Source: Psilocybe cubensis (lineage: Eukaryota). From it: 64,000 nt of DNA. The stretch's first letter is position 1. Each line of letters begins with the position of its first letter. A model generated the notes under the pieces. It searched no databases. It saw nothing but the letters and a program-made list of their open reading frames with translations, and was not told the DNA's origin. The stretch spans positions 1,860,001-1,924,000 of the forward strand of contig CM039002.1 of assembly GCA_017499595.2 (NCBI GenBank). The letters run 5' to 3'. The position numbers were made by a program, and so were the translations under genes. Positions 3,301 through 61,300 of this stretch are shown here, in pieces.

Positions 3301-3437
3301 TACATGAATCAAATAGAACATATGTTAATGTGCAATGAAATACACCTCTATACAGAGAATAAAATGCCTTGGACATTCTATGAAATACATCATTAAAAGT
3401 TCTAGGCAAAATTGCATATCACCTTGCAGGTAGTTAC

Positions 3438-3883
3438 TGTCAGGGCAACACTATAATTAGTATGACAAGGCCACCAACAAAGATCAAGCAAGAGAGAGAG
3501 AGAGCAGAAGAAGAGTAAGAGAGTAGAGAGAAAACAAGAGAGTGAGTGAGACTCAATAATTCTAAGAGATCAGACCAATGATAGTGGATATCCTAAGAGA
3601 TTGAAGCTGAAGCTACAGCTACCTACAAGTCCAGTATTTATACTCTATAGCTATTCTAGAATATTCCCTACATTACATCATAAAGGAAGGTTAAAGAATA
3701 AAAGTGACATCATATAGAAAAAGGATGAGTAAGACTAGGAATCATATAGAATTTACTAGAAAGAAGTGGAGCAAGAAGGCTGTGATGAAAGAAATAAACT
3801 ATCTAATCAGATAATTGATAAGATAATGAAAGGATAAGATAATTCTGTGAAGATAAAGAGGGGAAACTGGAGAAACCCTGACA
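3438..3883 (-). repeat. Gypsy 3' LTR
   Basis: Direct repeat of 9359-9804, TG...CA termini, adjacent to the PPT. Confidence 0.96.
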
Positions 3884-6800
3884 TCACCCCCTCTCTAAGG
3901 CACATTTTTCACAATGTGCACATGGATGGGTTAGTTTAGAGGGTTTAAGAAGAGGAAGAGGTTCATTAAAGTTAATAATAGGAGTGAAAGAAAGTCTATC
4001 AAAGGTCATAGCAGAAATCCTTCTAGGTGCTAAAGGATGTTTGGCATGGAAGTCCTTGATAGCCTTAGAAGCATTTTTCAAATGCTTTGCAGGCTCCCAA
4101 GTGCATTCTTCATTAGGATAGTTCTTCCACTTGACCAAATATTGAAGTTTGTTTCTAAAAAGTCTGCTGTCCTTGATAAATTCAACTTCCCACTCAGGAT
4201 TTTCTCCTTGAATGACAGGAGGTGGTCTAGAAGGAGGCTTTCTTCCTACAATATCTGGGTGATAAGGTAGAAGTTTAACCACATTGAACACTGGATGGAT
4301 TTTCATGGTAGATGGCAGCTTAAGCTCATAGGCATTAGGGCTAATAACTTTGGTAATTTTGTAAGGCCCATATCTTTTATCATCCAATTTCTTGGAGGGC
4401 CTATCAGTTTTGAGGTCCTTGCCATCCAACCATACCAAATCCCCAACTTTGTACTGAGTTGGAGTACCTCTGTGTCTATTATAGAATTTAGCCATATCAT
4501 CAGCAGCTTTTCTAAGTGCAGACTCTGCTTCTTTCCTGGCTTCTTCCATATTTTTCACAAAGGTATCCACAGTGTCCATTTTACTATCTCTAAGGGGTTC
4601 AGTGCCCATTCTGGGATGTCTGCCATTATTAAGCATGAATGGTGTCTGCCTGGTTGAAGCCTGAACTCTGTTGTTATAAGAGAATTCAGCTAGAGCTAAC
4701 CATTCAACCCAATCATCTTGTCTATGGTTTATAAAGAGTCTAAGATACTGCTCAATTTCTTGGTTAATTCTTTCAGTCTGACCATCAGTTTGGGGATGGT
4801 AGGCTGTAGATGAGGCTGTCTGGATACTAAGTATTGAGTTGAGTTCTTTCATAAACCTTGAGACAAACTGTGGACCTCTATCACACAGAATTTTAATGGG
4901 TAAGCCATGGTGTTTCCAGACATAATCTCTGTATAGTCTGGCTGTCCCTTCAGAAGTGACTTCATCTGTAGTAGGGATAATGTGGATCATTTTACTAAGT
5001 CTATCCACAACCACCATAATGGCATTATACCCTTGACATTCTGGTAACCCCATAATAAAGTCCACAGAGATGCATTGCCAGACATCAGAGGGAATCTCAG
5101 TAGGAATTAAAAGGCCAAGAGGTTTGGCTGGAAATGTTTTGGTTCTGTTGCATCTATCACAACCTCTGGTATAGGCTGCAATAAAATGTGACATTCCTGG
5201 CCACCAATAATTCCTAGAGACTAGCTCAATTGTCTTCCATTTCCCTGGATGTCCAGCAATGAAGGCATCATGGTGCAGTTCCACAATCTTTCTTCTAAGA
5301 TCTTTGTCCTTGAGAACATACACCTTCCCCCTGTAGAGAATAAGGCCTTGTTCTTCTGACCATTCCTGTCCTTCAATCTTCTTGGTAGAAGATTTCTTGA
5401 GCTCCTGAACTGCCTTGACCACCTTTTCATCCATCTCCTTAGCTTCTCTAATCTTTTTAAGAAGATCATTTTCTGCACCAGTAATGGTAGCATGACCCTG
5501 CTTGAGAGCCTGGATTTTAAAGTAGGAAGGTTTGAGGAGAACTACATTTTGATTATCATTCTCTCCCTTTTTATGATCTGGTCTCCTAGACAAAGCATCT
5601 GGCTTAAGAGATCTTTTACCAGGCCTATGATGAAGAGTAAAATCAAATCTGGACAGGAAAAGTGACCATCTGGCTTGCCTTCTGCTGAGCTTTTGGGCAA
5701 CCATAAAGTACTCTAAGTTTTTGTGGTCTGTCCAAATCTCAAAGGAATGTTGGGTTCCTTCAAGATAATGTCTCCATTCATCTAGTGCTCTGATAATAGC
5801 CAGCATCTCTTTATCATGGATCTCATAATTCCTTTCTACTTCAGATAGACTCTTAGACATAAAGGCTACAGGATGCCATTTCCCATCTGATCCTTCCTGA
5901 GATAAAACAGCCCCAGTAGCATAATCTGAACTGTCTGCTTCAACTTTATATGGCTTGTTATCATCAGGGAAAATCAAGACAGGTGAAGAAGTGACTTTCT
6001 TCTTTAACTGGTCAAAGGCTTCCTGCTGTCTAAGACTCCATCTCCAGACTGTTCCTTTCTTTGTCAATTCATGAAGGGGCTTAGCAATGTCTGCAAAATC
6101 CTCTATGAACCTTCTATAAAAATTAACAAATCCCAAAAATGATTGGACATCCTTGATATTTTTAGGTTCAGGCCATTTAGAAACTCCCTCTACCTTGACA
6201 GGATCCATCTCAATCCTGCCTTGTGAAATGATTAGTCCAAGATATTCAATCTTTTCCTTTTCAAATTCACATTTCTCTGCTTTAAGGTAGAGTTTGTTCT
6301 GTTCTAAGATTTGCAGAACTTGCTTGACTACCTCTCTATGATGATCAAGAGTCTCAGTGAAAATTAAAATGTCATCCATGTAGACAATGACAAGATTTCC
6401 ATCAATGAGCTCAATAAAGATATCATTCATCATAGTTTGGAAGGTAGCAGGACTATTGGTTAAACCAAAGAACATGACCAATGGTTCAAACAGCCCTCTA
6501 TTGGTTCTAAAGGCTGCTTTTCATTCATCTCCCTTTTTGATTCTGACATTGTTAAATCCCCACCTAACATCAAGTTTGGTAAAGTATTTGGCTTTGCTGA
6601 GTTTGGTGATGATGTCAGAAATCAATGGAAGGGGGTAGGAGTTCTTGATGGTCATTTCATTCAGTTTCCTATAGTCCTGGACAAGCCTAAGAGATCCATC
6701 CTTCTTCTTGACAAAGAATACAGGGGAGGCTATAGGTGACTTGGAGGGTCTAATCCTGCCAGACTTCAGATTTTCCTCTAAAAAGGCATCAAGTTCCTTT

Positions 6801-7764
6801 TGTTCATTGGGAGAAAGAGGATAAATCTTGGATCTGTAAGGTTCAGAACCAGGTTTCAGCTCAATAGCATGATCCCAAGGCTTTCTGTCTGGTAGCCTAT
6901 CAAAAGATTCCTTTGAAAAAACACCTTTAAACTGATGATAGTGCTTAGGAACAGTTTCTTCAAAGGTTTTCTTAGGGGAATCAGCTTGCTGATGAGACTC
7001 TTCTGCTAATCTTTGAGACATAGTAGAAGTAGCATTAATAGACTGCTTCTGAGGATGAAGGTATGAGATAAAAATTCTATCCTCAGGCTCAATCTCAGAA
7101 TCAGAAGAATCTTCAATAGAATCATCTTCTTCTTCATCAAATTGAGGGAGTTTCCTCCTTTTGACTGCAGCTATTCTCTGTCTCTTTCTTCTGGCTCTTT
7201 TGGCTTCCATTTGGCAGTCAGAGGGACATCTAATAAACTGGACATCCCCTGTCTTCCAATCAACATCTGGATTATGGTGCCAAAGCCAAGTATGTCCAAT
7301 GATAGCAGATTTGTCTCCCAAGTCACAAACAGCAAAGATGGCCCTTTCTGTATGGTTTTTGTGTACCATAATTAAGTCTACTTCCTCATGGATAGAGCCA
7401 CTCTTGTTGAGAGTACCATCAACATTATAGACTGGAATGGCTCTAGGAAGTTTCCTTGTGTTGAGATTATGATACTTCACAAAACCAGAATGCAGAAAGA
7501 GGCCAGTAGCTCCAGAATCAAGCAAAGCATCAACAGATAACCTTTTCTCTGTGTCCATTGTCTTTAAGATGACAGACAAATGGGTAGAGGTTTTAGGATT
7601 ATGGTTGAAGATGTAGATCTTTTCAGGGAAGGTAGAAAGAGAGGAAGAAGAAGACATGATTTCTGCACCAGAATCTGAAGACTGAGGATCAAGTCTGTCA
7701 ATTTCATTTTCTAGTACATTAAATCTATTCCACTGGGACATGTCTTTCACCAATGGTGCTTCTA
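3884..7764 (-). pseudogene. pol: Gypsy pol (protease, RT, RNase H, integrase, chromodomain) with one premature stop
   Basis: Protease ALLDSGAT; RT LRLVQDYRKLN and VYMDDILI; RNase H EADSSDYATGAVL and WTDHKNL; integrase HHCC and HPQTDGQTER; GPY; chromodomain WEVEFI...YLVKWKNY...TWEP. ORFs 6521..7753 and 3884..6481 share a frame and are separated only by TGA at 6521-6523, where the conserved W of DEWKAAF is expected. Confidence 0.95.
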
Positions 7765-8865
7765 AAAATTTTTCTTTTCCTCATCTTTCTGCTCCTTGCC
7801 TTCCAAGATTAATTTCCCAAAGTAGTCAGCCAGTTCTTCATGGGTCATAGCATTGATATTAACTGATGATCTGCAGTTTACAGCCTTATGACCAGGCTTT
7901 CTGCACTTAAAGCAAACAATTGGCCTAACTGACTTCCATCCAGAGTCAACCTCCATGGGAACTACATCTGGTTGCTTTACCTGAGCACCAAAGGTCCTTG
8001 AGCTGCTGTTGGAAAAGACTGGATGATTTGGAGTAGGCTTAGGAACAGCCTTGGGAGTTGGGGCTTTAAGGAAGGGAGAAGAAGAGGAGGAGGAAAGAGA
8101 CTTGGTAAAGGCCTCACTCTGTCTCCACTGCCTATCTAGCCTAGTACTCCATTTAATCCATCCATCCAAGGTTTTGGGCATGTCAGGAACATAGTAGACT
8201 GCATTCCTGAGATTTTCATTGAGCCCAGCCTTGAATTGGTCTACCAAAGCAGCATCATTATACCTAGTATCTGAGATCAGAGCCCTGAAGCTAGCAACAT
8301 ACTCATCAGCAGTCTGTCTGCCTTGCTTGAGCATGTGCATTTTATGCTTAGCTGTGTTGGAGGGGTCTGGATCTGCAAACACTTCCCTAAATTCATAAAC
8401 AAAGTCAGCCCAAAGACCTTCTTGGGACTGAGCATTGTCTATTACTTTAGTCTTCTCATATGCCCACTTCCCAGCAGTACCTCCTTTCATATGAGATAGA
8501 GCACAAATAACTTTCTGAAAGTCATCTGTAATCCCTTTCCCATAGAAATATAATTTAAGCTGACTGAGGAAGTTTTCTGCCTTCTCCATAGAACTATCAA
8601 ATGGATCTGGAGGTGAGACTTTAATGGCAGAGTGTGAACAGGAAGGGGCAACATGAGGGGTAGGGAAAGAGTGAATATCTAGAGCAGCAGGTGGTGGTGG
8701 TGGTGGTGATGATGGTGACTGACTGACTGGTTGCTGAGGGTGTGGTGGAGTGGATAATGACTGCTGCTGCTGTCTAAGAAAATTCAACTCTTGGGTAAGG
8801 AGCTGGACCTGATGCATGAGCTCTTCCACAGAAGGAGAGATGGGAGGCAATTGGGAGGGGTCCAT
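7762..8865 (-). CDS. gag: Gypsy gag (capsid plus CCHC zinc knuckle), 367 aa
   Basis: LKQGRQTADEYVASF and FKAGLN capsid motifs, VVPMEVD, CFKCRKPGHKAVNC knuckle. Ends at slippery A-AAT-TTT-TAG. Confidence 0.93.
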   Translation of the reverse strand: MDPSQLPPISPSVEELMHQVQLLTQELNFLRQQQQSLSTPPHPQQPVSQSPSSPPPPPPAALDIHSFPTPHVAPSCSHSAIKVSPPDPFDSSMEKAENFLSQLKLYFYGKGITDDFQKVICALSHMKGGTAGKWAYEKTKVIDNAQSQEGLWADFVYEFREVFADPDPSNTAKHKMHMLKQGRQTADEYVASFRALISDTRYNDAALVDQFKAGLNENLRNAVYYVPDMPKTLDGWIKWSTRLDRQWRQSEAFTKSLSSSSSSPFLKAPTPKAVPKPTPNHPVFSNSSSRTFGAQVKQPDVVPMEVDSGWKSVRPIVCFKCRKPGHKAVNCRSSVNINAMTHEELADYFGKLILEGKEQKDEEKKNF

Positions 8866-9345
8866 GTCTATGGGTAGGGGTAGGCTCTCTGATGTGTGTG
8901 TGGGAGAAGCTATCTACTGAAAGTGCCCTTGAAACTATACTAAGTACTCTAAAAAAATATCTATCTACTGGATACCCAGTTGTCACACCACTCAGGGCTC
9001 TAAACCTAGGATCACAGGGTTACTGGATATTTCCTAGACCACCAAAAACAGAACACTAGTAGGACTGTGTCTGCCCCAACAGTTGGTATCCCTATCTACT
9101 AAGTTCACACACAGCACACAACAGAGAGTAGGAAAGACGATGAGCCCAAGGTCTTGAGGAAAGGTCTTGAGAAAGATGTTGAAGGTTAGTGGAGAAGTAG
9201 AGGTTGGTAAAGAGATTGGTGAAGAGGTTGGTGAAGGGGTTGGTAGATTGGAAGTGGAGGAAGAAGGTTGAGGTAATGGTGTTGAAGAGGTTGAAGAGGT
9301 GAAGAGTTTGGTGTTGAAAGAGAGATGGTGGAGTTGTCTTGAGAG

Positions 9346-9356
9346 AGCTTCAATCT
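9346..9356 (-). promoter_or_regulatory. Self-priming primer binding site (Tf1-type)
   Basis: AGATTGAAGCT lies 2 nt inside the 5' LTR and is complementary to AGCTTCAATCT (9529-9519) in the LTR, ~30 nt downstream of TATAAATA (9563-9556). Confidence 0.8.
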
Positions 9357-9358
9357 TC

Positions 9359-9804
9359 TGTCAGGGCAACACTATAATTAGTGTGACAAGGCCACCAACA
9401 AAGATCAAGCAAGAGAGAGAGAGAGCAGAGGAAGAGTAAGAGAGTAGAGAGAAAACAAGAGAGTGAGAGAGACTCAATGATTCTAAGAGATCACACCAAT
9501 GATAGTGGATATCCTAAGAGATTGAAGCTGAAGCTACAGCTACCTACAAGTCCAGTATTTATACTCTACAGCTATTCTAGAATATTCCCTACATTACATC
9601 ATAAAGGAAGGTTAAAGAATAAAAGTGACATCATATAGAAAAAGGATGAGTAAGACTAGGAATCATATAGAATTTACTAGAAAGAAGTGGAGCAAGAAGG
9701 CTGTGATGAAAGAAATAAACTATCTAATCAGATAATTGATAAGATAATGAAAGGATAAGATAATTCTGTGAAGATAAAGAGGGGAAACTGGAGAAACCCT
9801 GACA
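9359..9804 (-). repeat. Gypsy 5' LTR
   Basis: Direct repeat of 3438-3883, contains TATAAATA. Confidence 0.96.
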
Positions 9805-13297: not shown

Positions 13298-16200
13298 AAA
13301 GAGCTTATATACAAATTAAATGTCGTAACCTATTAGTTTGAACAAAATCTGGACTCTGGAATTATGTTATAGCATTATGGCTGTATTACTGGTTACTTGA
13401 CTGTAATATCTAATAAGTGGATGGGCATAAAGTCTAAAAAATGCCTTGGTTTGCTTTCTCCTATTCCTATCTTGTTTGACTTGGAAATCAACAAAATTTT
13501 GGTGATTTTTTAAATGGTTCAACACTGGGTTCAATTATGAAAAAAATAAAAATATCTGAATTTTCCGTCCAGCCATGCTCTGGCCTCTAGAGGACAGTCT
13601 AATCCTTTGTCTGTATTGTATATAATTGACTGTCTTTTATATTCCTCTTTGACTTTTTGATGTCTTTTCTGATATGTTTTGATATTACAAATATAAATAT
13701 TTCAATCCTTTGATTACTTCTAGACCTTATGATGCAGAAGCTTAACACAAAGCAGTCCAATGTTTTATGACCTACTCATCACTATTTTATCATGTTTAAT
13801 ACAATAAAATTAATTCACCCCAGTCTTTGTCCACAGTGTTAACAAGCATATTACTCAGTTTTGAATTATATAAATGCATATATATACCAGTATATTATTT
13901 TACCTCAACATTCTATTTAAAACAATTGCATAATCAGGCAAAACTAATAAAAAATAGCAAATTTGATGGGTACATCTCAATTTGGAAATTATTGCCATTT
14001 GTAGACTCAAAATTTAAACTCCAATCAATATTATCAGCTCAATAGCAGTGTTTATGGGCCAAAAAAGAAAAAAAAAAAGAAAAAGAAAAAGAGGAAAAAG
14101 GAAGGAGAGGGAGAGTGACTTGTACGGTCCACATCTACTACTCTTCTTTGCTAACCAACGCTAATTCACCAAAAAGTGTCCAGCATGTCTCTGAACTAAT
14201 ATAACATTTCAGATACTCACTTAAATGGTTCATCTAAATCTGAACCAGCCCATCAAATATAGCTAGTTGTTTCTTTTTCTTCTATTTATTAGCTAGATAC
14301 CCGCTTAAATCAAACCTGCTCTAGGATTCAAGAAGTTGACATTTGTGCATGTAGATTACATTTGTGCATGTAGATTAGATTAGAACTACTACACATTTTA
14401 TTTGACTCCAGACCATCCTTCCTAGCACGGCTTGCTTGGATGCTTTGTGTTTCTTTCCTTTGTAGGACATTCAACCTTACTATAATCCTAAGACAGATTT
14501 TTGCAGTTGTTGACTGTTTGGCTGCCAGTGCAATCACTTAATCCACATTTGCGGCACATCCTTTCCTTGCGCAGGTATTTGACCAGCTTTAGACGCTGAA
14601 TTGATTTGAGTACATGTTGGCGTGCCAACATTTCAATCTGATTTTGTTTGTCTTTGTAGCTGTGGTTAACTGCTACAGTGTGATGAGATGCAGTATCTAA
14701 TAGCTGTGACTCAGAGTTAGATGGCATGGTTAAATTTGAACTTGATTCAGCAATTTCCGTGTCATTATGAGCATTATCAATAGTGCTGTATGAGTGGTTC
14801 AATTTGATAAGGCCTTTTGTGGACAGAATAGAAGGTTGAAGTAGCCTTTGAAGTATGGCAGGCGCCTATTTGGAACAATTTGGATCATAGATTAGTGTAA
14901 ATATTGGGTGTCAAATATCAGCCAAAAGGGAAAGGATTTCTGAAACATGCAATAGAGACTTCCATTTTGAATAGTAAGCTTTCAGATGTTTAGAAAGCTA
15001 TAAACATGATGAATAAGTAGAACAAACAATGAATTAAATAGATTATATGCACACCTTGTACCAAATGTCTGCCTTCACTTCAGCATGTGCATTCTATTCC
15101 TGGACAGCTTGGGACCATTGAGGTTTGCCTAATATTGGGCTGAATGCAGAGTTTTGAGAGGTTATCAAATCACGAAAAAGCTTTTTCTCATCAGCAGTAT
15201 AAACAGGAAGGATAGTTTGGCGCGTATTTTGAATGTGTGCCAAAAATAGATGTTTTTGTGTTGGCTCCAACTTTACTTCAGTAACTTTCTTATTGAAGGG
15301 AAGAATGCCGCTATTTTGCCGTATATCTTCTGGAATGAGAAAAATTCCAATTGCTTCCTTGGTTGGTATATAGAGATTGCTGTTTACCCATCTCCTAATA
15401 TGTGTTAGACTAATAAGCATGTCATTTAACGTGATAAGCAGTTCTTGAAGATGATTGGTAATCCATATTGAAAAGTAACCTCTATAATGGCATCCTATTG
15501 AATTAAATGTTCCGGTCTAAGAATTGAATGTGAGTAAACAAATAGGCATTTAGAGATTAATAAAATATACCAGAAGATTGTGTTGCAAAACAAAATCCTT
15601 CAATGATGCTTGAATATGACATATGGATATACCAAACTTGGGAAGCCGGGAGCAAATGTGGGTATGCACATCTCCTTCTGTTGTGTTTGTTTCACATGCG
15701 CATCGGTATATAGAAAATCCACCTGCATTTTCATCAATACCTATGAATAGAAATAGTACAACTTCTGGAGAATTTGATAGATAGCCTTTTTCAATTAGCT
15801 CAAGAATATGTTTTGCAACCTTTCAGTTTTCAGCAGAAAATAGCGGCTTCTTGGTGACAGGATCCTTGATAGATCCATATGTAAGAAAGATCTATGCCAC
15901 AAGCTTGTATAAACATTGTGGAGGAGGTATACTGTACTTGCATTGACGGCGTAACCAATCTGGGTTTGAATTTCTAAAATCTTCATAAGTATGGGGAGGA
16001 TTTAGCCAGGCACCATAAGCATTGATCCTTGCTTTGTCTTCTTTATTGGGAATAAAAATAGCATCATGTAGCTCTCGGATGAATTGTTTTTGCAATCCAT
16101 GAGTTGCAGAAATATATAGCATATGAAATACATGCCATACATTTTTGAGAACACAGCTGTAAACTATATTGTCCCAAATCTCAGAATCATCTCCCAATAT

Positions 16201-16305
16201 TTCTAATCCAAGTTTGGCACTAGTAACATCAATATCTGGTGCCAAAGTCATAGTTTTGGGGCCATCTGAGAGGTCTTGGGAAAGCAAATCATTCCCAATA
16301 GGTAA

Positions 16306-16506
16306 GGCCCCATTCAGTAACTCTGTTAGAGTTGGTTAGGTTAGGTTTTTCCCTGCCAAATTTTGCGCCAAGCCGAGCCAAGTTGGTTACCTCTGGTTAC
16401 GCCTGTTATGCTATGTCACTTTTTGGCAGGCAAAACCATGACAAATCGTGACAAAACCTGACAAAACCTAACCTAACCAACTTTAACAGGGTTACCAAAT
16501 GGGGCC
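16306..16506. mobile_element. PIF/Harbinger (Tourist-like) MITE, 201 bp
   Basis: ~40-bp TIR GGCCCCATTCAGTAACTCTGTTAGAGTTGGTTAGGTTAGG with its reverse complement at the right end; TAA TSD at 16303-16305 and 16507-16509. Confidence 0.88.
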
Positions 16507-17747
16507 TAAGAGATCATCTTGGATAGCATTGTCAATCAATCCCAATTTTTCAGACCCAGATAGAACAGTTTGTGAGTCACAGTTAGAATTTAGCAAATTG
16601 GACTCATTTGTTCCAATAGAAAGGCCGGGATTATGCATCAAATCACAGTTGCTAGTTGTAGAATCTGATGATTGAGATGCAGAAATTGCATTATAAAGGC
16701 GGCAATGGTTGCAAAGGCAAACAAGGGAGAATGGTATTGCTCCAAAGCTGTTTAGTGATTGTTTGCAGTGACTAGCAACAAGAGCACCCGGGACAATGAC
16801 TTTTGTTACATCAATAAGGATGCAAGTTGGTAATATATTGATATCATTGTACTTCTTAAGGCCATGTAATTAAGATATCTTGCCTTTAGCAATAATTGTT
16901 GTGTTATCCTGACTATAAAAAAAGATACACATCAATGGATCAAGCAAAGATGGTAGGGAAGTTGGAATTTGAAGCTTATGGAGCTCTTGGTAGATGCAAA
17001 GTGATGCATAGCCATCAGTAGCAGCATATTGAATCTGCTCCAGGGACAAAATTAAACTCTTTCAAGCAGTTTTGACATGTTTAACGAGTCGTTTCTTGAG
17101 TAAAATAGCACAAAGGTTGGTGAGACTGGCTTTAGAAATATTTGATATAACATTCCATTCTTTGGCGTATTTTGCAAGATCAAGCACTCCAACAAAGGCA
17201 AGTGGCAAGTGGCATGACTCTTGTAAATGTGTGAGATCAGAAGCAACCATTTGTCCCAATTTTAAAATGCGTAGGTGTGCAAAAAAAAGCTTCAGCTGAT
17301 AAGACGGTTCTCCTTTTGCTACCATCTACTGATCTATTAAAATATCATATTAGCATAGTGTCTGCGGTTTAGAAAATTTAATATTTACATATCTGGAATA
17401 GGTAGATACAATTGCAATGTGCAATCTGAATAATTGCTGTTTTACTGTGCTGCTCAACTTGCCTGTAATTGGATACTTCAAAGTTCCATTCTGTTTTAAA
17501 CCCAATAACTATGATGCCGGTGTCCTGGGGCACATTGTTCATGATAGAACGAGCTGCATTGTCAATTGATTGAGCAGTGTCTTTTGGAAGAATAATTACT
17601 TCCGGAGGGAATTCAAAAAGATCCAAGTTGCTATATTTTTCTGTAATGCCTTCTTGCAGAGACGGGAAGCAGCGCTCTAGATAGTTTTTGTTGCTGATAT
17701 TATCAGTGTAAAATACACAAGGTGGAGTGTTTCCATAGAGGGCAAGA

Positions 17748-18039
17748 TAATGGAAAAGTAATCTCAGTACGATAGAAACGAACTTATATATTTAGTAGAT
17801 ACTACCTAATGGAAAAGTAATCTACGTTAAGAGTAAGTAAGATTGAACAGAACACAAGTAAGTTAGCTGGCACACACCTCAGTACGATAGAAACGAACTG
17901 AAGTGGTGCCATTTCGTCAAAACGAATATAAGTAAAATTGTCTTGAATGTAACAAATAACCGAAGATGAATGTAACACAAATTGTCCATAGTCCAGACCG
18001 CCGTCACGAGGACGCGCCGGTCAGTTTGCCAATCCAACA
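17748..18039 (-). repeat. Copia 3' LTR
   Basis: Direct repeat of 22714-23005, next to PPT at 18040-18049. Confidence 0.95.
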
Positions 18040-18046
18040 CTCCCCC

Positions 18047-21000
18047 TCAAACTGCGGCGCGTAAACCCATTGCGTTCGCAAAGTGCTTTGCTTTCGCGCT
18101 CGGAAGAGCCTTCGTGAGAGTGTCAGCAGTTTGGTCATCGGTAGGGCAGTAAATCAACTTGATAGAGCCGGAGTCGATAATGTATTGAATAAAGTGGTAA
18201 CGAATATTGATGTGCTTTGTGTGTGCGTGATATTGATCTCCGTGAGCGAGAGCGATGGCCGATTGATTGTCGCCGTAGAGTGTGGTGGGGTGTACTATCT
18301 TGATATTGAGTGCGCTAAAAATATTGTTAACAAGGCTGCGTAACCACATGGCTTCCTTTGAGGCGTGGGTAGCGGCTACGTATTCGGCCTCGGCTGTCGA
18401 CAGGGTGACCAATTCCTGCTTTTTCGACGACCACAACACAGCTCCTCCATCCACCACAAACACGTACCCCGAAATCGCCCTCCTGTGGTCTTGCGACGCC
18501 CCATCTGCATCCACGAAACCCACCATGTCCCTTTTCTCACCGCCATACGTCAATGCCAAGTCTTGGGTGCCCTTGAGGTACCGAAAAATCTTCTTCACCG
18601 CCTCCCAGTGAACCCACGCTGGGTTGTCAACGAATTGCGCCACGGTATTTGTCGCAAACATGATGTCGGGTCGCGTTCCCATTGACGCGTACATGAGCAA
18701 GCCCACTGCTTCACAATATGGTACGTTTTTCATCCGTGCAATGTCTGCAAGAGCGGTCGGGCATTGTGACCTGGCAAGTGGCTGACACGGATCCATAGGG
18801 ATAGCACTTGGTTTCAGATCGTCGAAATTGAAGCGTGTCAAGATGGTGTCGATATACGCATTCTGGGAGATGGAAATGGTCTTGTTGGTAGTGTTGCGAG
18901 TGATCTTGAATCCGAAAAGCCATTTGCATTCACCCAGGTCCGTAATCTTATATTTCTTGTTGATTTTGACCTTAAATTGCGCAATTAGTGGCATTGAGCT
19001 CCCCGTTACCAGACAATTGTCAACGTGTACCCCCACAATGACGATTTTGCCGTTCACCATCTTCACGAATACACCCGGATCCGCCTCCAACACCCTAAAC
19101 CCCAACTCCCCCATTGCCTTTTTCAGCGCCTCGTACCAATTCCTCGCATCCTGCTTCAATCCGTAGAGTGCCTTGTGAAGGCAATACACGTAGCGACATG
19201 AATCCGTTGCAAATCCGCGTGGCTGCTCGAGGTAAATGACCTCGTCTTCTTCCAGGTTCGAGTTCAGGAACGCGCTATCAAAGTCGATGCTTTCGAGTGG
19301 CCATCCGTTGCGGTTAGCGAGTGCAATCAGGTATCGGAAGGTGGGCAGGCGTGCAACGGGTGCGAAGGTCTCGGTGTAGTCCACGCCATGGATTTGGGTA
19401 AATCTGCGTGCGACGAGACGAGCCTTGTACTTGTCAATCTCGCCTGCGGCATTCTTCTTGATGCGTAGGACCCATTTGCTGCTGACGACGTTAGCGTTTG
19501 GTGGGCGTTCAACCATCTTCCATGTCCCGTTCGCCTCGAGTGATGCAAGCTCGGCTTTGATCGCGGCCTCCCATTTTGGCCAGTCGGATCTCCTTCTCGC
19601 TTCGTCGTATGTCGGGTTCAGCCCCTCAGCTGCATCCATTGCAGTTGCCATCGCAAAATCCATCGCCTCAACAATGTCCCATGCATCCGCCAACAGCCCT
19701 TTATTACCTGCACCCTCAACACTGGCCTCGCCTTCCTCGTCCTTCTCGGAAACCTCTGGGACAACCTGGAGACTGCGCGGGAACTGGCTTGCTGCAGGTA
19801 AGTTGCTAACTTTTGCAACTCCCTGCCAAATGTCTCTGACGTACGCGCTCTCCTTTCGCAGCCGTGTACTTCGACGTAGCTCGGATTCTGCTGTAGTAGG
19901 AGTGTTGGTGTTGGGTTTGGGAATGTTTGGGGACATGTAGCGCTTGGAATCATCCTCACGCTCGTTGTCTGACTCCCCCTCAAGCGGTGTGTGTTCCAGT
20001 ACTACCTCATCTGGCATAAATCTGACACTTCGCTCAACTAACACAGATCTCTTTTCTGTATAGTACACCCGGTGGCCGTGGCTTTCTTCATCAAACCCGA
20101 CCCACTTTCCTTGCTTTGCTCGACCATCCAGCTTCGAAGCGCTAGTATCATGCACCCACACGTCACAGCCCCATGGTGGAATGTTCGAAATGTCTGGCTT
20201 TTCACCCGTCAACACCTTGTATGGTGTTGCTTCCCCAAGCGCCTTTGTTGAGGTGCGGTTCTTCAGATAGACCGCATGATGCATTGCCTCACCCCACAAA
20301 AACTTTGGTAGGCCACTGTTGTGTCGCATTGCACGCACCTTGTCGAGGAGTATGCGGTTGAGGCGTTCCGCAACGCCGTTGTATTCAGGGGTGTCATGTA
20401 TGGTGAGTCTTCGAGTGGTGCCGGCCGCCTTGAGATGGGCTGAGAATTCATTACTTAGATATTCTCCCCCTCGGTCACTGTGGAGTTTCTTAATGGGGGC
20501 GTCAAACTGGGTCTTCAGCCAGGCTTCAAACTCGCAGTAGTGCTGGAAGACCTCGTCCTTGGTGTGCATCAGGTAAATCTTTGTGAACCGAGTGTAGTCG
20601 TCTGTGAAGCTGACAAAGTAAGACTTATGGTTAATAGTCTCCACAGGTGCATCACCCCACACATCCGAATGGATCTCCTGGCCAAGTTCCGTGGCCTGCT
20701 CCTCCACCCGCTCTCTTGCTATTGGCTTACGATGGGCCTTCCCCCACTCGCACAATGGGCAAAACGACGGCTTGCTGTCCTCATCAAGCTCGACTCCAGT
20801 CACCAGGCCCTTCTTGACGAGCTTCCGCGCTGCATCATGGCTGATGTGCCCCATCCGGCGGTGCAATTCATCAATGGTCAACACCTCAATAATGCGCCCA
20901 GCGTATCCTGCCACTTCTGGACGTGCTGTGAACACACGGTAAAGTCCGTTCTGCACCTCAATTTTCCCCAGCATCTCACGCGATCTGTTGTAGATCCGAC

Positions 21001-22608
21001 AGAGTGCTCCTGAAAATACGATGGTGCCGCCTGCCTGTGCAATTCGGCTGATGGAGACCAGGGTAACCCCCATCTTTGGGGCATAAATGACATCACGGAG
21101 CAACTGCTTTGTTGCAGGCCCGTCACCGTTAGGTATGTCAACATATATATCTCCCTTGCCAGTCGCAAAGAACTGACGCTTATCGGCAGCTGTGATAGGC
21201 TTCGGGTCGGTCTCAACAAATTTAACGAAGCAATGTCGGTGTCCGGACATGTGGCGTGTAGCACCCGAGTCATACAAATCCATATCGACGAGGGTCTGCT
21301 TTTGGGTAAGGGTGGCAGAGGTGAATGTGCTGTGGGCTTCATCTGTAGCAGTGAGGGACAGGACTGCTCAGGAGGTAGGTGCATAAATTTTCTCCCATTC
21401 ATCATCAGAGTCATCGGAGTCTGACACAGATTGCAGACCTGGAATCTCTTCATCATTGTCCTCATCACTGGAGTCACTAACTGACTGGAGGGCTGGCATG
21501 CCATCCAAGTCAGCATCAGAGATGGGATCATACTCGGAGCAGCTGGAAATGAGCTCGAGAATGTTGGCGTCGGAGAGGGAGAATTCGGATGAGGAAGAAC
21601 AGGTGAGTTCCTCAGACAAAGCATCAAATTCATCATCTGACGTGGTCATGGCCATCCAACCTTCCTCGTCCCCATCATCCTTTGCACTAGCCGCTGTCTC
21701 CTTCCCTTTCCCCTTGTCGCCTCCGCCTCCACTGCTCTCCTTGCCCTTTCCCTTGGGCTTTGAGCCACTCAGGCCTTGCCCTGCTCTACCGCCGCCCTCC
21801 GCCCAGCACTCGGACTTGAAGTGCCCACGCTTCTTGCAGTTGTAGCACTCAACATTCTTCTTCCATCCACCCTTCCTCTCACGTGAACCTCCCGCATCTC
21901 CATGAAAGGCCGAGTTTTCTTCTCGTCTGCTGGTACCCTTCTGGCCCAGTGCACGACGGTCATACTCTTCGGTCACCATGTGCATCAACTCGTCAGCGGA
22001 TAAAGTTGTGCCAATGACGCTTGACGTGGCGTTTACGGCTGATATGTAGGGGTCGTAGGAAGGTGGGAGAGATCCATGATGATTGCGTAAAAGTCGTCAT
22101 CCGTTGGCGGCTGTCCCATGGCTGCCAAATCTTCGCGCATCAAGCGCAACTTGTTGAAATGTGCTTGCACATCTCTACGCTCGGGGCAGCGTTCCTGCTG
22201 TAGCTGGCGTCGCAAATCCACGGAGACCATCCGTGATTTGTTCTCGAAGTCTCTTGCGAGAGCATCCCAAATATCGAAGGCAGATCCCTTGCCTTGAATC
22301 TTCATAAAATGTGAGTCCGAAATCGTTGCCGCAATCTGTTGCTTAACGATTGCCTCTCCTTGGTTCCAGGCCTTTAGCTCCTTTCGCCATTCCGCATCAA
22401 GAACTGCCTGCTTGTTAGTGAGCGGCTGATTTGGGACATGAGTGATGGGGTCCGGCGGAGCTACTGCAGTGCCGTCGACGTGCTCGAGTTTGCCGCGCGC
22501 GTCGATAGACCATAAAAAGCGTTGCTTGTAAATGACCCAGTTCTTGCCCGCCTCGTCAAGCTTGGGGATCTTCATGAAGTCATTGCTTAGTTTAAAAATA
22601 GAAGACAT
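18047..22608 (-). pseudogene. Copia gag-pol polyprotein with a frameshift (~22075) and a premature TGA (21368-21370)
   Basis: CYNCKKRGHFKSEC knuckle; protease YDSGATRHM; GAG-pre-integrase LHRRMGHIS; integrase HSDVWG, LHSDRGGEY, NGVAERLN; RT KYKARLVA, LHKALYGLKQ, HVDN (decayed YVDD); RNase H FVDAD, STAEAEY, ADTLTK. Confidence 0.93.
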
Positions 22609-22700
22609 GGTTGACAGTAATAAGTGGAGAGTTTTGCTGAGGGTAAATAGGTCACTGGTTGGTTGAGTAGAATGAATGCTGGATTGATTCAGTGTCTCTT

Positions 22701-22713
22701 GGGGCCCATAACC
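22701..22713 (-). promoter_or_regulatory. Copia primer binding site (internal half of initiator tRNA-Met type)
   Basis: GGTTATGGGCCCC directly after the 5' LTR, resembling the Drosophila copia/Ty5-type PBS. Confidence 0.85.
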
Positions 22714-23005
22714 TAATGGAAAAATAATCTCAGTACGATAGAAACGAACTTATATATTTAGTAGATACTACCTAATGGAAAAGTAATCTACGTTAAGAGT
22801 AAGTAAGATTGAACAGAACACAAGTAAGCTAGCTGGCACACACCTCAGTACGATAGAAACAAACTGAGGTGGTGCCATTTTGTCGAAACGAATATAAGTA
22901 AAATTGTCTTGAATGTAACAAATAACCGAAGATGAATGTAACACAAGTTGTCCATAGTCCAGACCGCCGTCACAAGGACGCGCCGGTCAGTTTGCCAATC
23001 CAACA
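22714..23005 (-). repeat. Copia 5' LTR
   Basis: Direct repeat of 17748-18039, followed by the PBS. Confidence 0.95.
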
Positions 23006-26000
23006 CAAGAGATTCAGCCATAGCATTCAGAGCAAGTTGTGACTGTGATTGGGTTTTAGTGGCAACCAAATTGCAGGTACATATTTCACCCTTTTCATTT
23101 GTTACTGTCAATAATCCAGAAAAGACTTGCTTGCCATTAACATGAATAATGTGTTTTGTTATCTAAAGTCATGTATAATATTAGTATTGAAGACAGAGCA
23201 AATAAAATATATGTACCTTATGGCTATAGTCAAGTACACATATTTTATCAGTAAGCATGCTTGTATGTTGGTTGAAATCATGTTCGTGCTTCTTAATAAA
23301 GTTATTGTACATGTTGCAAAGCCATTTGAAGCTTGGAATGAAGCCATGACAACCATTTGGACTTGTGTCGTGAAATGGTAGAAATGCTTTGTGCCTCTCA
23401 CCCTTTCAGGCTTTTAACAAGTGGCAATGAATATTGAGATGCTTGAGGTATTGGAGATGTAATTGATCATATTTTAACAAGTGTTGAACATAAAGCGCAT
23501 TGGCAAATTGTTTGCTACCAATACCATTTTGGAAAAACAACCTCATCCATTCAAATAGAGTCTTCAATACTGCATTTTGATGGCTTAATTGTGCTGGAAA
23601 CTCAGCTGCAAGAGCAGGCGGAAGAATTTCTAGGATACAAAGATCCCAGCTTCAAAAAGTAATTGTATTTTTGTAAGATTTAGGGTGAATACATGAACTA
23701 CAACAGTAACAATAACCAATTATCCAAAATATTGAGTCTATGTCTATGTATCTTTGGGGGGTCAAAATTTCACTATGACATTGAAGTGGTTTATAGCAAT
23801 TTGGACAAGGAATGCCCGCCAAGCATAATGAATGAGGATCCCAAAGATAAAAGCAAGGGAGATAGAGTTTGCTAGGAGATAGACCACGTTCTTGGAAAGT
23901 AAAGAACACCAATCTTTGTGGAAACCAGAAAGTGCTGTGGTCAGCATATAGTGGAGGAAGATTTTTGGTATCACAGTAATGTGAATTTTCAAGATGCATT
24001 TTGAAAGGCTTAGCTAGCCACGGTGCAAGCAGACAGCATTGCTGGGTTTTTCTTTTGTCTTTTTTAAAATTATTTCCCTTGCCATCACAATTTTGATCAG
24101 CATCTTTTTGTCCGAGTCCATCCCCAATACCATCTACACCTTTATCATCTTCATCCGTAAAATCCACAATCCGGTAAGAGTCTTGATTCGGAATAACTTT
24201 GCTAGCCAATAGTGGAATGTTTTCATCAGTATGTTGAATAGTATGCAATGTATATAAGCTGCTTGATAAGAGCTGAAGAAAGGGCGCAGGTAGAAATAAC
24301 AGGGTAGGCTGTGTTTGTAACGTCGACACAATTAAAGATTGAGATAAGGAGGATGCACAAGGTAGAATGTGCAGTTGACAATAACTCGATCCAGTGGATG
24401 ATGTTTGTGCTGATGCAAAAACAGTAGCCCATGCTCTGGAAGAATTTTTACGGGCTTTAGTGTCCTCCAGTTGTTGAGTTGATAGAGTCTGACATGCACT
24501 GTATAAGCAAGAAGTATATACACGAATGCAGAATTACTCACTTTGGATGTGAACTCTACTGACACAGCAACCTGTGGTACCTTTTGTGGCCTACTGCAAG
24601 GCCTTTTCTCTACAACCTCTCTGGACAGCTACCTCTCCTTTTGTTTATAGCCTGTTCCGGGGGGGGCGACCCAGTTGACAACAAGGGCCATAAACCACGG
24701 CCTTAACAATTTGGACTTGAGCGCTGTTGGACTCATTCCTACTAGAGGGCGCATTTCTGGTTGCACAAGACTCTGTATCCTCAGATAGATTTGAGTCTTA
24801 GTAGATAATTGTTAATGTCAAGTAATAACCAAAATAGAAACCACATATTTAGTACATACCGTTTTTTATGCATATTGTGACATTGTACAAAGAACCACTA
24901 TCAGAGACATGATCATTAAGTAAAAGAAACTGAGAAAGATCAAACAAGACTAAACAGACCTTACTGAACCAGTTTGTATGTCACTCATAATGACATTTTC
25001 CCACTTGGAGTCTAGATCTATCTGAGTTGACTCTCTGACATATTCTGTAGGGTCTCTGAAGGAAATATCTATTGATTAGATAAAAGAAGGCAAGGGGGGT
25101 ATGTATGCGGATTTGTTATACAAGTAGTGACAAGGCAGAGAGTTAAGAGTGAGACACAACTACTGGCGTTCTAACTTTGCATGCGCGGTTTCACTTCCCA
25201 ATGGTCCATGGTCCATACACATGGGATTACATAACATTATTGATTGTTTTTTTTCAAATTCAGAATTGGTATCGCTATCCGACATAGACATGGATAGCAA
25301 GCCATATTATCAATGGGGATGTATTTGGACCTGTTTTATAGGATTGTGATTGTTTTTTAAGGTTTTAACTTTGTCAATGTTATTTGTTTAATATATCAAA
25401 TGTATATACACAATTAAAAGACATAAAACCACTGTGAAACAATAAAAACAACTATTTATTTAGTAGATGGCCAGAACTAGCTCAATTTAGTATCTGGCTG
25501 GCTTAGTAAGTGCACATAACCAGGCATAGAAATTTTGGCCAATACTGGCATGTTAAACAGGACAAAAGCTAGCAGAAAGGCAGGGATAAAAAAAAGACTT
25601 GTTTCTCTTTTTGGTTGAACCTTGTAACCTACACTACTAATCTACATATTGATTTGATTTTTAATTGTTAGGTAAGTATTCATTGACAAGGAAATAAATT
25701 TCTAAAGTGGTTATGTTCTTATGCTCTAACCATTATTATTTACCTAGCCAGAGTGCCAGCATATCAATTCCAGTGCTGGGTACATAGTGCTAATGCTCAC
25801 CAAAAAGTATTCTAACACCATCTGAGAGCAACAACTCAAAGTCTATATAGACTAAAAAGTTACCTCACATGAAACATCTCATTAAAAAGGCAGGACACAA
25901 TAAAATGTACCTGTGGAAAAAATCCCATAGCAACCCACTGATGCTTTATCCACTGCTTTAGGCCCCTTGAATACTCTGCTAGACAATTTATACCTCCCAT

Positions 26001-26538: not shown

Positions 26539-27705
26539 CACGATGGGCACCTAACTGTCATGTGGCTATCTAACATGTTAGCTAGGTTGTTGCCATAATA
26601 TTGTACTATGTTAATTGTCATGTAATTGTCATGTTAACTGTCATGTTTTTTGAGTCACACTCTTCCTTGTCACTCAAGACCATGGGGTCCAGCAGATACA
26701 TATCCGGTTGACTTGGGGGAAAAATGAAAGGAAATGTAGAGTGTATACATTAACACTACACAACCTGGCCAATATTAAATACTAGGGGCATTGGCTTAAG
26801 AAAACAGTAATTTGTCTAAATTTCATTGATTGATCAAATTGCAATTAAATTTCAAGATTTATTGACAATAAAATTCAGGTGGTGCACATCATGGCGGTAT
26901 TTGAATCCATCAATACCCATGCCGAACGGCCGATCAGTAATCATGCTCGCTGGAATCCCCCTATTCATATCAATTTCAACCAATATGGCGTGTACTCGCG
27001 TATTAGAGAGACAGCATGCACCTAGATATCAGCAAAATAAGGACAAGAATCTCACTTCCGGGGAAAGAATGGCAATTTTCCTCATTAATGATGCAAAAAC
27101 GGTTGATGAGCAAATAGTCGCAATCATATTCTCACATCATGCAAACTAAGATTGGAAATCACATCGATTACAGGCTGAAAGGCTTGCTCTAGATGGGTGT
27201 GATCGTTGACAGAATGCGCACCTTGCCAGGCATTGGGAAACATAGCTGAAAACGCGCGCAAAGAGGAGACACGCTGCAAAATAAAGACGCCTTTTGACGC
27301 GTCAAAGCTTCTTGACCATGCCGTTGCTGCGGTCGGCATGTTGGCTGCTTTCAAGCTCATTCAAACTCAGAAAGGCACACCAACAGTATACACCCATTGG
27401 CTAAACTGTTCCACATGATTTTAAAAATTAAACAACATTGTAAAAAAGAGAATTGAGTAACACCATTGCCCCCAAGTCAACCGGTTATGTAACTGCCAGA
27501 CACCATGTTTGATTGCTAGCTTTAGGAGTTGAAGACTATTCACGGTTCACAGAAACTTACTGGGTCTTGAGTGACAAGGTAGAGTGTGACCCAAAAAACA
27601 TGACAGCTAACATGACAATTACATGACAATTAACATAGTACAATATTATGGCAACAACCTAGCTAACATGTTAGATAGCCACATGACAGTTAGGTGCCCA
27701 TTGTA
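26539..27705. mobile_element. Non-autonomous CACTA/CMC-like DNA transposon, 1167 bp
   Basis: ~143-bp TIRs (26539-26681, 27563-27705) starting CACGATGGGCACC, with repeated TGTCATGT subterminal motifs. 3-bp TSD ATA (26536-26538, 27706-27708). Excision restores the host reading frame. Confidence 0.85.
26681..27507. mobile_element. Inner TIR element nested in the CACTA-like element
   Basis: ~40-bp imperfect TIR CATGGGGTCCAGCAGATACATATCCGGTTGACTTGGGGG vs CCCCCAAGTCAACCGGTTATGTAACTGCCAGACACCATG; no TSD seen. Confidence 0.65.
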
Positions 27706-59755: not shown

Positions 59756-59930
59756 GGCGTGGCCTCCAACTCGTAGCGCACTGGATGTAGCGGGAGAGGG
59801 CTGAGGGAGAGCGGAGATGTGGTGGTGGTGGGAAGGCAAGACTCGCAGGGCTGTGGCTGACAAGTCGGCATGTTTGCGGGAGTTGACACCACAAAAATGT
59901 TTATTTCTATCCGTCCTCACGATTATAATA

Positions 59931-61159: not shown

Positions 61160-61300
61160 TATTGGAAAACAGAGACAGCGGCCGGGCTGAGAGGAGGGAT
61201 AAGCAAATAAATAAATAATTATTATTAATTAATTTTCGGGGCAAAATACAGACAAACGGCCGGGCGTTGCTCGTCGTCTGCGACGAGCAGAGAGTTGACC

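Follow-up and report, generated by a model that had tools for sequence, protein, structure and literature searches.

Transposases that carry a second nuclease within the catalytic core have been in print since Kojima and Jurka (2013; PMC3706591) reported an exonuclease at this position in Dada-1_LB and Dada-2_LB of Laccaria bicolor and in Dada-1_ES of Ectocarpus. The layout examined here, which a preliminary description of the locus had treated as new, is therefore not new. The DxxH motif is common to Dada, hAT, P, Kolobok and MuDR (PMC3706591), and the accessible part of PMC10045372 gives target site duplications (TSDs) of 4-10 bp across the wider clan. An RNase_H_Dada profile has been published in the supplement of PMC5751038.

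The stretch analysed (the window) comprises 64,000 nucleotides of Psilocybe cubensis. The element within it is very probably a dead, CpG-eroded copy of a fungal cut-and-paste transposon of the Dada lineage. The best explanation as a whole, which joins this identity to the domain layout and to trimming of donor-side DNA by the exonuclease, is given a probability of roughly 0.85.

Structure of the element in the window

All motifs named in the preliminary description were found in place on the minus strand of the window. The range it proposed (14390-24860) was too short. In the direction of the gene, the features are as follows.

14036..25303 (-): whole decayed Dada-lineage DNA transposon; 11,268 bp gross, 5,801 bp without Copia, MITE and their duplications (net length computed with the Copia end set at 23005)
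25304..25311 (-): TSD, 5' side (GATAATAT), single copy at empty sites
25274..25303 (-): 5' terminus GGCTTGCTATCC, derived by decay from GGCTCGCTATCC, the end seen in the 7.3-kb family
24536..24664 (-): AT-hook motif remnants (TBLASTN to residues 102-150 of the intact paralogue P0001, E 0.006)
23217..24197 (-): CCCC zinc finger, DUF6729 region and first catalytic Asp; two in-frame stops
23229-23231 (-): first catalytic Asp (LDYSH)
23163..23216 (-): GT-AG intron after D-x-S-H-K, same position in the intact paralogue
23006..23162 (-): transposase core strands (…VTNEKGE…) between first and second Asp
17748..23005 (-): nested Copia LTR retrotransposon; 5-bp TSD TCTTG; gag-pol with frame breaks
17748-18039 and 22714-23005: Copia LTRs, 292 bp; 8 differences in 291 positions compared
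17393..17747 (-): exon with second catalytic Asp and exonuclease motif I in one open frame
17702-17704 (-): second catalytic Asp (FYTDN)
17495-17497 (-): Exo I GF[K]TEW, Asp replaced by Lys; its Glu at 17489-17491
17334-17392 (-): intron before exonuclease motifs II-III, splice donor decayed
17000..17333 (-): remainder of the WRN-type DEDDy exonuclease; one stop
17236-17238 (-): Exo II Asp
17026-17028 and 17014-17016 (-): Exo III Tyr and Asp, respectively
16306..16506 (.): nested MITE, 201 bp; inverted repeats of about 45 bp; TTA TSD
15570..16302 (-): DxxH motif, helical insertion domain and catalytic Glu; two stops
16141-16143 (-): K[N]VWH (DxxH), Asp replaced by Asn; its His at 16132-16134
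15676-15678 (-): catalytic Glu in RC-x-x-TNTTEG
14410..15516 (-): C-terminal exons closing in a Cys cluster; five stops
about 14410-14560 (-): C-terminal Cys cluster
14036..14130 (-): 3' terminus, pyrimidine tract, then ...TATTGAGCT, decayed form of ...TATCGGGCC
14028..14035 (-): TSD, 3' side (GATAATAT), 8 bp

Two copies of the target repeat that lack the insertion (L035 and L036) set the boundaries, which are supported as well by the resemblance of both termini to those of intact paralogues. An uninserted version of the target is thus present elsewhere in the genome, where it holds GATAATAT once. A 9-bp duplication was considered and rejected because GCC closes the paralogues, for which the count is 8 bp; the best explanation of the ninth matching base is a C-to-T change at the last base of the element. 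The inverted repeat of this copy has eroded to about 6 bp.

The Copia and MITE insertions, already recognised in the preliminary description, are real: each is bordered by its own duplication, and the frames flanking them are collinear with those of the intact paralogue, to which TBLASTN gives 45-52% identity with E values between 1e-94 and 1e-155. The Copia is younger than its host element, and its CpG observed/expected ratio is 0.89 versus 0.31-0.34 in the host. The MITE is presumably Tourist/PIF-like, a label taken from its TTA duplication. CpG erosion is seen in old copies of the element, which suggests that silencing acts on these elements.

With 12 in-exon stops and two key aspartates gone, the window copy is dead. 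The suspected likeness to DUF6729 falls below the cut-off in the window (E 0.0044), but two intact paralogues match this domain firmly, with E 1e-14 and 2e-19. The exonuclease profile PF01612 scores E 0.025 in the window and 1e-11 and 2e-12 in the paralogues. Likewise, the AT-hook-like motifs are mere remnants here, while P0001 has proper GRP hooks. A paper search found no literature description of DUF6729. No nucleotide copy of this element's own family exceeds 68% identity inside the element.

Intact paralogues and recent mobility

Working copies carry one spliced gene encoding a protein of about 1,500-1,600 aa. By sequence and model, AT-hooks, a zinc finger and DUF6729 precede an RNase H-type DDE core that belongs to the IS256/Mutator/hAT/P clan, and a complete WRN-type DEDDy exonuclease interrupts this core between the second Asp and DxxH. 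In P0001 (1,585 aa) the transposase residues are D532, D602, D1030xxH1033 and E1184, and the exonuclease occupies residues 673-818, between D602 and D1030. The order is the same in the window copy. The catalytic residues are retained in 37-43 of 43 protein-search matches; the intact paralogues have all four DEDD residues, as do 38-40 of those 43. The earlier proposal of a single polypeptide with two nuclease centres, the second placed between the second Asp and DxxH, is thereby supported, with both catalytic sets conserved across fungal homologues.

Nor is the exonuclease a separate insertion. One exon holds both the second Asp and Exo I, and another encodes Exo II-III, DxxH and Glu. Exonuclease distances covary with transposase distances across 46 chosen proteins (Spearman 0.83; highest of 999 shuffles 0.38).

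Nine dispersed loci of this lineage were found in the genome. Exact 8-bp duplications are present at eight of them (one inferred across an assembly gap) and represent seven distinct 8-mers; at the ninth, C4, no 5' end was located up to about 11 kb upstream. The paralogues end in short GG...CC inverted repeats, which form a 22-bp imperfect repeat in the C12/C3 family and a 26-bp repeat in the C1/C8 family; for the C11 family and the window element their length is no more than about 6-8 bp. The preliminary description had called for intact homologues with terminal inverted repeats and 9-10 bp TSDs; the repeats exist, in short form, and the duplication is 8 bp. An automatic end scan returned no ends for C4 and C8, and the termini of C8, which are different, were recovered by pairwise alignment with C1.

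The sister families moved recently. The C12 copy is missing, and its target is single, in DNA contigs X3 and X4 from two runs of another study, where the joint skips 5,723 bp (5,715 + 8). At C11 two copies lie adjacent around one duplication. The termini of young copies are kept to the base. No RNA record was found among the element-bearing sequence records listed. Contig depth is higher at the 5' end of the gene, although contigs cannot rank gene parts, and none of the contigs examined bridges the second Asp to Glu.

Insertion sites are unrelated and mostly AT-rich. A tRNA scan of 27 loci and of the window found no tRNA gene in any of them, and at relaxed Rfam thresholds no tRNA, snRNA or rRNA matched in 18 loci or the window; the matches on the loci were all sub-threshold and hairpin-like, and one of the Rfam scans gave none at all. 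The Rfam scan took in intact empty sites for two insertions, and a gene split by an insertion could escape either scan where no empty site was scanned.

Predicted structure and proposed role of the exonuclease

In the predicted paralogue model (pLDDT 85.8) a WRN-type exonuclease is nested within an IS256-type transposase fold. Over 185 residues the exonuclease superposes on that of WRN with Z 26.7, 30% identity and an rmsd of 1.9 A, in agreement with the WRN-type assignment of the preliminary description. The best transposase match is ISCth4 of the IS256 family (Z 12.7, model residues 1-728), which aligns on both sides of the exonuclease. When the exonuclease was removed from the model, no Foldseek match reached E <= 0.001, and ISCth4 again came first (1.1e-3).

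The N-terminal modules would bind the element ends. The core would excise and integrate the element in a manner similar to that of Muta1 and hAT enzymes, so that the flanking DNA is left broken. Insertion itself takes place with an 8-bp staggered cut. Tethered in the transpososome, the exonuclease would trim the 3' ends of flanking donor DNA or of residual cleavage products, and would spare the transferred ends and the target. Nibbling of transferred ends or target is argued against by the intact termini and exact duplications. The accessible part of PMC5499845 places MULE hairpins on flanking DNA. No biochemical or functional test of the exonuclease was found in the literature searched. Trimming of donor-side 3' ends is our best guess, and we put its chances at about even. 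The domain appears dispensable for transposition as such, because three Apophysomyces gene models lack the exonuclease (at the level of annotation) and the D-to-E spacing of Dada-U6_DR leaves it out.

The exonuclease might instead act on the transposon itself. In an IS256-like copy-out reaction it would strip the excised or circularised ends of a 3' overhang or of spacer bases before integration. This is the less likely course, though it gains from ISCth4 being the nearest solved transposase (Z 14.2 in a further comparison, versus 9.0 for Hermes and 8.5 for P), from the placement of the exonuclease inside the catalytic core, and from its closeness to the proposal of Kojima and Jurka (PMC3706591) that cleaved 3' ends are processed. 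Such trimming would, however, need a precise stop to yield the base-exact termini of young copies, and the joints listed, which come from contigs only, include no circle junction.

It is rather improbable that the substrate is RNA, the exonuclease degrading or trimming small RNAs and so countering silencing of the element. Nibbler/Mut-7, RNase D, EXD1 and Egalitarian do share the fold (Z 17-18.6), and the CpG erosion described above indicates active silencing, but WRN, a DNA exonuclease, is far ahead in structure and also in profile comparison (E 3e-30 versus 6e-15 for Nibbler). The position within the transposase core would moreover tie the domain to a DNA complex rather than let it diffuse freely.

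Assignment to the Dada lineage

The elements have the DDE triad and DxxH with a Dada-type core by which the superfamily was delimited in 2013. A comparison by eye of the exonuclease of P0001 with the published rows of Dada-1_LB and Dada-2_LB (Fig. S1) shows near-identical motifs, with G-x-D-x-EW-x-V, KTA, ILKVGR, FVGG-x-DL-x-x-LAK and YAA-x-DA-x-AS in common. From DxxH to Glu, a protein of Laccaria shows 71% identity. The first two Asp have a spacing of 70 here, against 68 in Dada-U6_DR (PMC3706591) and, by eye, 69 in a fish Dada family, in which an intron after D-G-T-K-K matches, also by eye, the one after the first Asp here. P0001 has an N-terminal C-x2-C-x31-C-x2-C, with a spacing unlike that of Dada-U6_DR. 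Its C-terminal Cys cluster contains no His (CCCC-type, not CCHC), and the tail is short in the C8 family.

Animal names were absent from the protein-search rows (43 of 43, 26 of 26 and 120 of 581 matches listed). In another protein search, the 10 proteins looked up by name from the 150 of 931 matches listed were fungal or without a name. A lead that a 'Sagan' group owns the same layout gained no support from a literature search and was dropped.

The preliminary description called the element Mutator-like. This holds at the level of the clan, given the match to ISCth4, and not for Mutator proper. A true MuDR-type element that gained a WRN exonuclease independently of Dada is quite implausible. 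The IS256-type fold with C/DxxH, the inverted repeats and the long duplication would suit it, as would an Atlas cluster auto-named 'MULE transposase domain' (score 0.93) and a weak match to PF10551 MULE in one of nine single-exon paralogue frames (16.8 bits, E 0.0096, cut-off 27.6). Yet the fold and DxxH are common across the clan, the exonuclease matches the published Dada-LB rows, and the duplication, at 8 bp, falls short of 9-10. Taken without its exonuclease, the core of a Mucoromycota relative reaches TM 0.85 to a chordate DUF6729 cluster and 0.57 to a MULE cluster, which together with DUF6729 itself points away from MULE; the chordate Atlas clusters carry no Dada label. The precomputed Pfam columns of the protein-search rows listed include no MULE or Transposase_mut.

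That the sequence is a host WRN-like exonuclease gene, as the database names of the paralogues ('3'-5' exonuclease', 'Werner Syndrome-like exonuclease') would have it, or an exonuclease gene nested in a transposon by chance, is refuted by the empty sites and has practically no probability left, since the loci are dispersed, with exact duplications and presence/absence polymorphism, and the two nucleases share exons and covarying distances; the earlier view of a mobile element stands.

Comparison with known systems

Transposases with two nucleases do exist and occur widely among fungi, and the window copy is a fossil of this kind. Intact, recently mobile copies with defined ends and 8-bp duplications in the same genome make the role of the exonuclease testable. 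Databases misname such proteins as host WRN-like exonucleases, so gene counts can mislead.

Dada-1_LB, Dada-2_LB and Dada-1_ES share with the elements described here a DEDDy exonuclease between the second Asp and DxxH, with its four acidic residues retained, and the presence of introns (PMC3706591). The fungal representatives published are 7,773 and 5,652 bp long, against 7,324 and 5,715 bp for the families in this genome. The accessible part of PMC3706591 gives no termini, duplication or target for them; the ends are defined here. No description of the ends and insertion behaviour of exonuclease-bearing fungal Dada was found in the literature searched.

Animal and Perkinsus Dada (Dada-U6, -U1, -tRNA and -5S; PMC3706591, PMC8869645) have in common with these elements DDE and DxxH, a spacing of 68-70 between the first two Asp and an N-terminal CCCC finger, and one fish family shows motif-level likeness by eye. 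Dada-U1 tandems resemble the C11 twin, two copies around one duplication. However, animal and Perkinsus Dada make 6-7-bp duplications in small-RNA genes, lack terminal inverted repeats and have no reported exonuclease, whereas the elements here duplicate 8 bp at sites unrelated to each other, end in short GG...CC inverted repeats, carry an exonuclease and have a tail of CCCC type instead of CCHC. Three hallmarks of the 2013 definition (duplication length, small-RNA gene targets and absence of terminal inverted repeats) are thus not seen here, and the definition may need widening.

IS256/Mutator elements (ISCth4, PDB 6XG8; Muta1, PMC5499845 as far as its accessible part goes) share the closest solved transposase fold, DxxH, inverted ends and a long duplication, but differ in about 10% identity in structural alignments, in the lack of a curated MULE/Transposase_mut match here and in having no exonuclease. 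WRN exonuclease (PDB 2E6L, 2FBX) shares the fold and the DEDDy motifs; here the domain is embedded in a transposase, with no helicase. KolobokD and KolobokE are also DxxH-clan transposons with an exonuclease thought to act on DNA intermediates; according to the accessible part of PMC9587614 their nucleases belong to the DEDDh or PD-D/ExK types, and TTAA is the duplication that Kolobok makes.

Tentatively, and somewhat short of an even chance, the exonuclease-bearing elements of Basidiomycota and Mucoromycota may form a distinct active branch with GG...CC ends, 8-bp TSDs and no RNA-gene targeting, in which double insertion at one target is possible and an own WRN-type enzyme cleans the donor break. 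Such a branch would keep the unspecialised, ancestor-like state of the target-specific, repeat-less animal Dada and would link Dada to IS256/Mutator.

The decayed copy and its surroundings

All the motifs named in the preliminary description, which had proposed a Mutator-like transposase with a WRN-type exonuclease inside its core, were found on the minus strand where that description had located them. The limits of the transposon are set by empty sites: its flanks are joined at two other genomic places, both belonging to a host repeat. The features of the window are as follows.

Features of the window
392-3437: 1-kb inverted arms (392-1394 and 2435-3437)
3437-9804: LTR pair (3437-3736 and 9358-9657)
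13834-14027 and 25312-25628: unclassified dispersed repeat that hosts the transposon, at least 0.5 kb long; four further copies observed (L035-L038), the empty site being spanned in two
14036-25303, minus strand: decayed transposon, 5,801 bp net of both insertions, duplication GATAATAT
16306-16506: nested MITE, 201 bp, TTA duplication
17748-23005: nested Copia element, 292-bp LTRs, TCTTG duplication
26540-27704: 1.16-kb element with 142-bp inverted repeats, 97% complementary, inside another repeat
56390-61444, both strands: long CAG/CAA (polyglutamine-like) tracts in GC-rich genes

The interrupted gene is collinear with P0001, the protein of an intact paralogue used here for residue numbering, at 45-52% identity. 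Twelve stops lie opposite P0001 exon residues, a count that omits one further stop and the intronic stops opposite gaps. One splice donor has decayed, the Exo I Asp is replaced by Lys, and the DxxH Asp by Asn. The window copy is dead. Its CpG observed/expected ratio is 0.31-0.34; two young copies reach 0.85-0.89, and the nested Copia element 0.89. The decay thus well preceded the arrival of the Copia; methylation is probably the cause.

Genome-wide, the Copia family has five copies with both LTRs and one additional LTR match. Its LTRs terminate in TA, not CA, and those of the nested copy differ from each other at 8 positions, all transitions.

Ends and target duplications

Protein searches of the genome (46.6 Mb, 21 contigs) found nine loci. 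The paralogous copies with defined ends are grouped below by contig.

Paralogous copies
C12 and C3: 5.7 kb, 99.5% identical; 22-bp imperfect inverted repeats; duplications AAAAAATG and GGTTTTCG
C11 family: 7,324 bp, 99.9% identical; duplications CAATGATG and TAACAGTA
C1 and C8: about 6.2 kb, 79% identical; 26-bp repeats; duplications GTATTTGG and CTGCTAGT

An exact 8-bp duplication is present at eight of the nine loci, in one case across an assembly gap; by chance, a given place would show one exact 8-mer with a probability of about 2e-5. The gap case is the third C11 copy, which is split exactly and has the same 8-mer as its neighbour. For the C4 copy a 3' end is present, and a search for the 5' end did not find one; this copy is interrupted by the LTR family of window 3437-9804. 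Intact homologues had been expected to carry terminal inverted repeats and 9-10-bp duplications: the repeats are there, at 22 bp in C12/C3 and 26 bp in C1/C8, and the duplications are of 8 bp instead.

On C11 (2083232-2092808 and 1962614-1967708; L015-L018, L044) one 8-bp target is present three times, with two copies of the 7,324-bp family placed head to head around it; the second copy is divided exactly by a 100-N gap (2,237 + 5,087 = 7,324). This looks like a double insertion at a single site, though it may be an assembly artefact. As judged by eye, an S14-like ribosomal protein gene lies downstream of one flank. A lone C11-type 3' end at C10:1213459 (L072), with no matching coding region nearby, is possibly a non-autonomous remnant.

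Mobility and target choice

DNA contigs from sequencing runs X3 and X4, both from one other study, skip 5,723 bases at C12, which correspond to the element plus one duplication. They still contain the element, joined to the C3 flank. The absence at C12 indicates recent movement of the sister families. ARAGORN found no tRNA at targets in 27 loci and the window, and Rfam found no tRNA, snRNA or rRNA genes in 18 loci and the window.

Two nuclease centres in one protein

The exons of the intact paralogue match P0001, a database entry labelled Psilocybe cubensis, one by one at 94-100% identity. This protein of 1,585 aa begins with AT-hooks, followed by a CCCC finger with DUF6729, the domain to which the preliminary description had likened the Cys-rich part; 931 cluster representatives match this N-terminal portion. 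Next come D532, D602, the exonuclease (D673/E675/D740/Y814/D818), D1030xxH1033, E1184 and a Cys-rich tail. One exon encodes D602 and Exo I, the next Exo II-III, DxxH and E1184, and in a contig from run X1 (presumed RNA) the intervening intron has been spliced out.

Homologues were found in Agaricomycetes, Pucciniomycotina and Mucoromycota. Both catalytic sets are conserved: the ten key residues are retained in 37, 40, 38, 39, 38, 40, 40, 43, 43 and 42 of 43 homologues, more than half of the misses being gaps in partial models. They are likewise kept in 44-46 of 46 long proteins, a set picked by hand with the exonuclease required. Across these 46, pairwise distances of the exonuclease and transposase parts covary (Spearman 0.83; maximum of 999 shuffles 0.38). 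Shared descent alone accounts for this, and it counts against a late, separate insertion of the exonuclease.

The predicted structure agrees with the proposed combination of folds. In an AlphaFold model of P0001 501-1300 (pLDDT 85.8), model residues 129-333 match the exonuclease of WRN at Z 26.7 (rmsd 1.9 A) and residues 1-728 match ISCth4, an IS256-family transposase (Z 12.7, 234 residues). ISCth4 was again the top match (Z 14.2; Hermes 9.0, P 8.5) when P0196, which lacks the exonuclease, was modelled (pLDDT 70.1).

P0196 is one of three Apophysomyces gene models (with P0181 and P0202) that have the same transposase core and no exonuclease, only about 15-50 residues separating the second Asp from the DxxH position. 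These could represent relatives that naturally lack the domain, or gene models spliced wrongly. Judging from such sequences, the exonuclease may be dispensable in some lineages.

Possible role of the exonuclease

These elements are mobile, have defined ends, insert with an 8-bp stagger, and encode both centres, each conserved, in one reading frame. Enzymes of the hAT type excise via hairpins on flanking DNA. Hairpins on flanking DNA are also described for MULE excision in the accessible part of PMC5499845. Since the young copies keep their termini and duplications to the base, the exonuclease would leave the transferred ends and the target untouched and would act on donor-side 3' ends or by-products, a reading to which we assign a probability of about one half. 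Processing of a transposon intermediate is a distinctly less probable role for the enzyme. An anti-silencing action on RNA is improbable.

Relation to published Dada elements

According to PMC3706591, the Dada elements of Laccaria bicolor and of Ectocarpus have a DEDDy exonuclease placed after the second Asp and before DxxH. It keeps its four catalytic residues and likely processes cleaved 3' ends. By eye, the exonuclease rows of the Laccaria families Dada-1_LB and Dada-2_LB in its Fig S1 agree with P0001 motif by motif. The first family in the supplement of PMC8869645, a degenerate fish Dada compared visually, reads ILCIDGTKK then an intron, VLNEWGQ, IYADN and PPGIQLY; the counterparts here are ICAIDHSHK then an intron, VTNEKGE, FFTDN and PPGIPLY, with 69 residues between the Asps in the fish family and 70 here. 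In the protein-cluster resource Atlas, whose matches are leads without alignments, the core is nearest to mostly chordate clusters that carry no Dada label (feature score 0.97), with TM 0.85 to a DUF6729 cluster versus 0.57 to a MULE cluster.

Fungal Dada comprise 1,023 elements in four phyla, according to the portion of PMC5751038 seen. In the literature searched, most of it at the level of listings and outside Repbase entries, subscription journals, figures, preprint supplements and Dataset S1 of PMC3706591, neither a description of fungal Dada ends or duplications nor a test of the fungal Dada exonuclease was found; the accessible parts of related papers, including PMC9587614, PMC12477816, PMC6431247, PMC10045372, PMC4455052 and PMC12730594, likewise describe no such ends.

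Published Dada, as far as the available text of PMC3706591 and PMC13565253 goes, insert into small-RNA genes, duplicate 6-7 bp of target and lack terminal inverted repeats; the present elements share none of these three traits. On protein sequence they are filed in the exonuclease-bearing Dada-LB lineage and not with canonical target-specific Dada, since the known features of that lineage are protein features and these are present here. The window element is a dead copy of a design in print since 2013; what is possibly new is the definition of the ends and the absence of target specificity.
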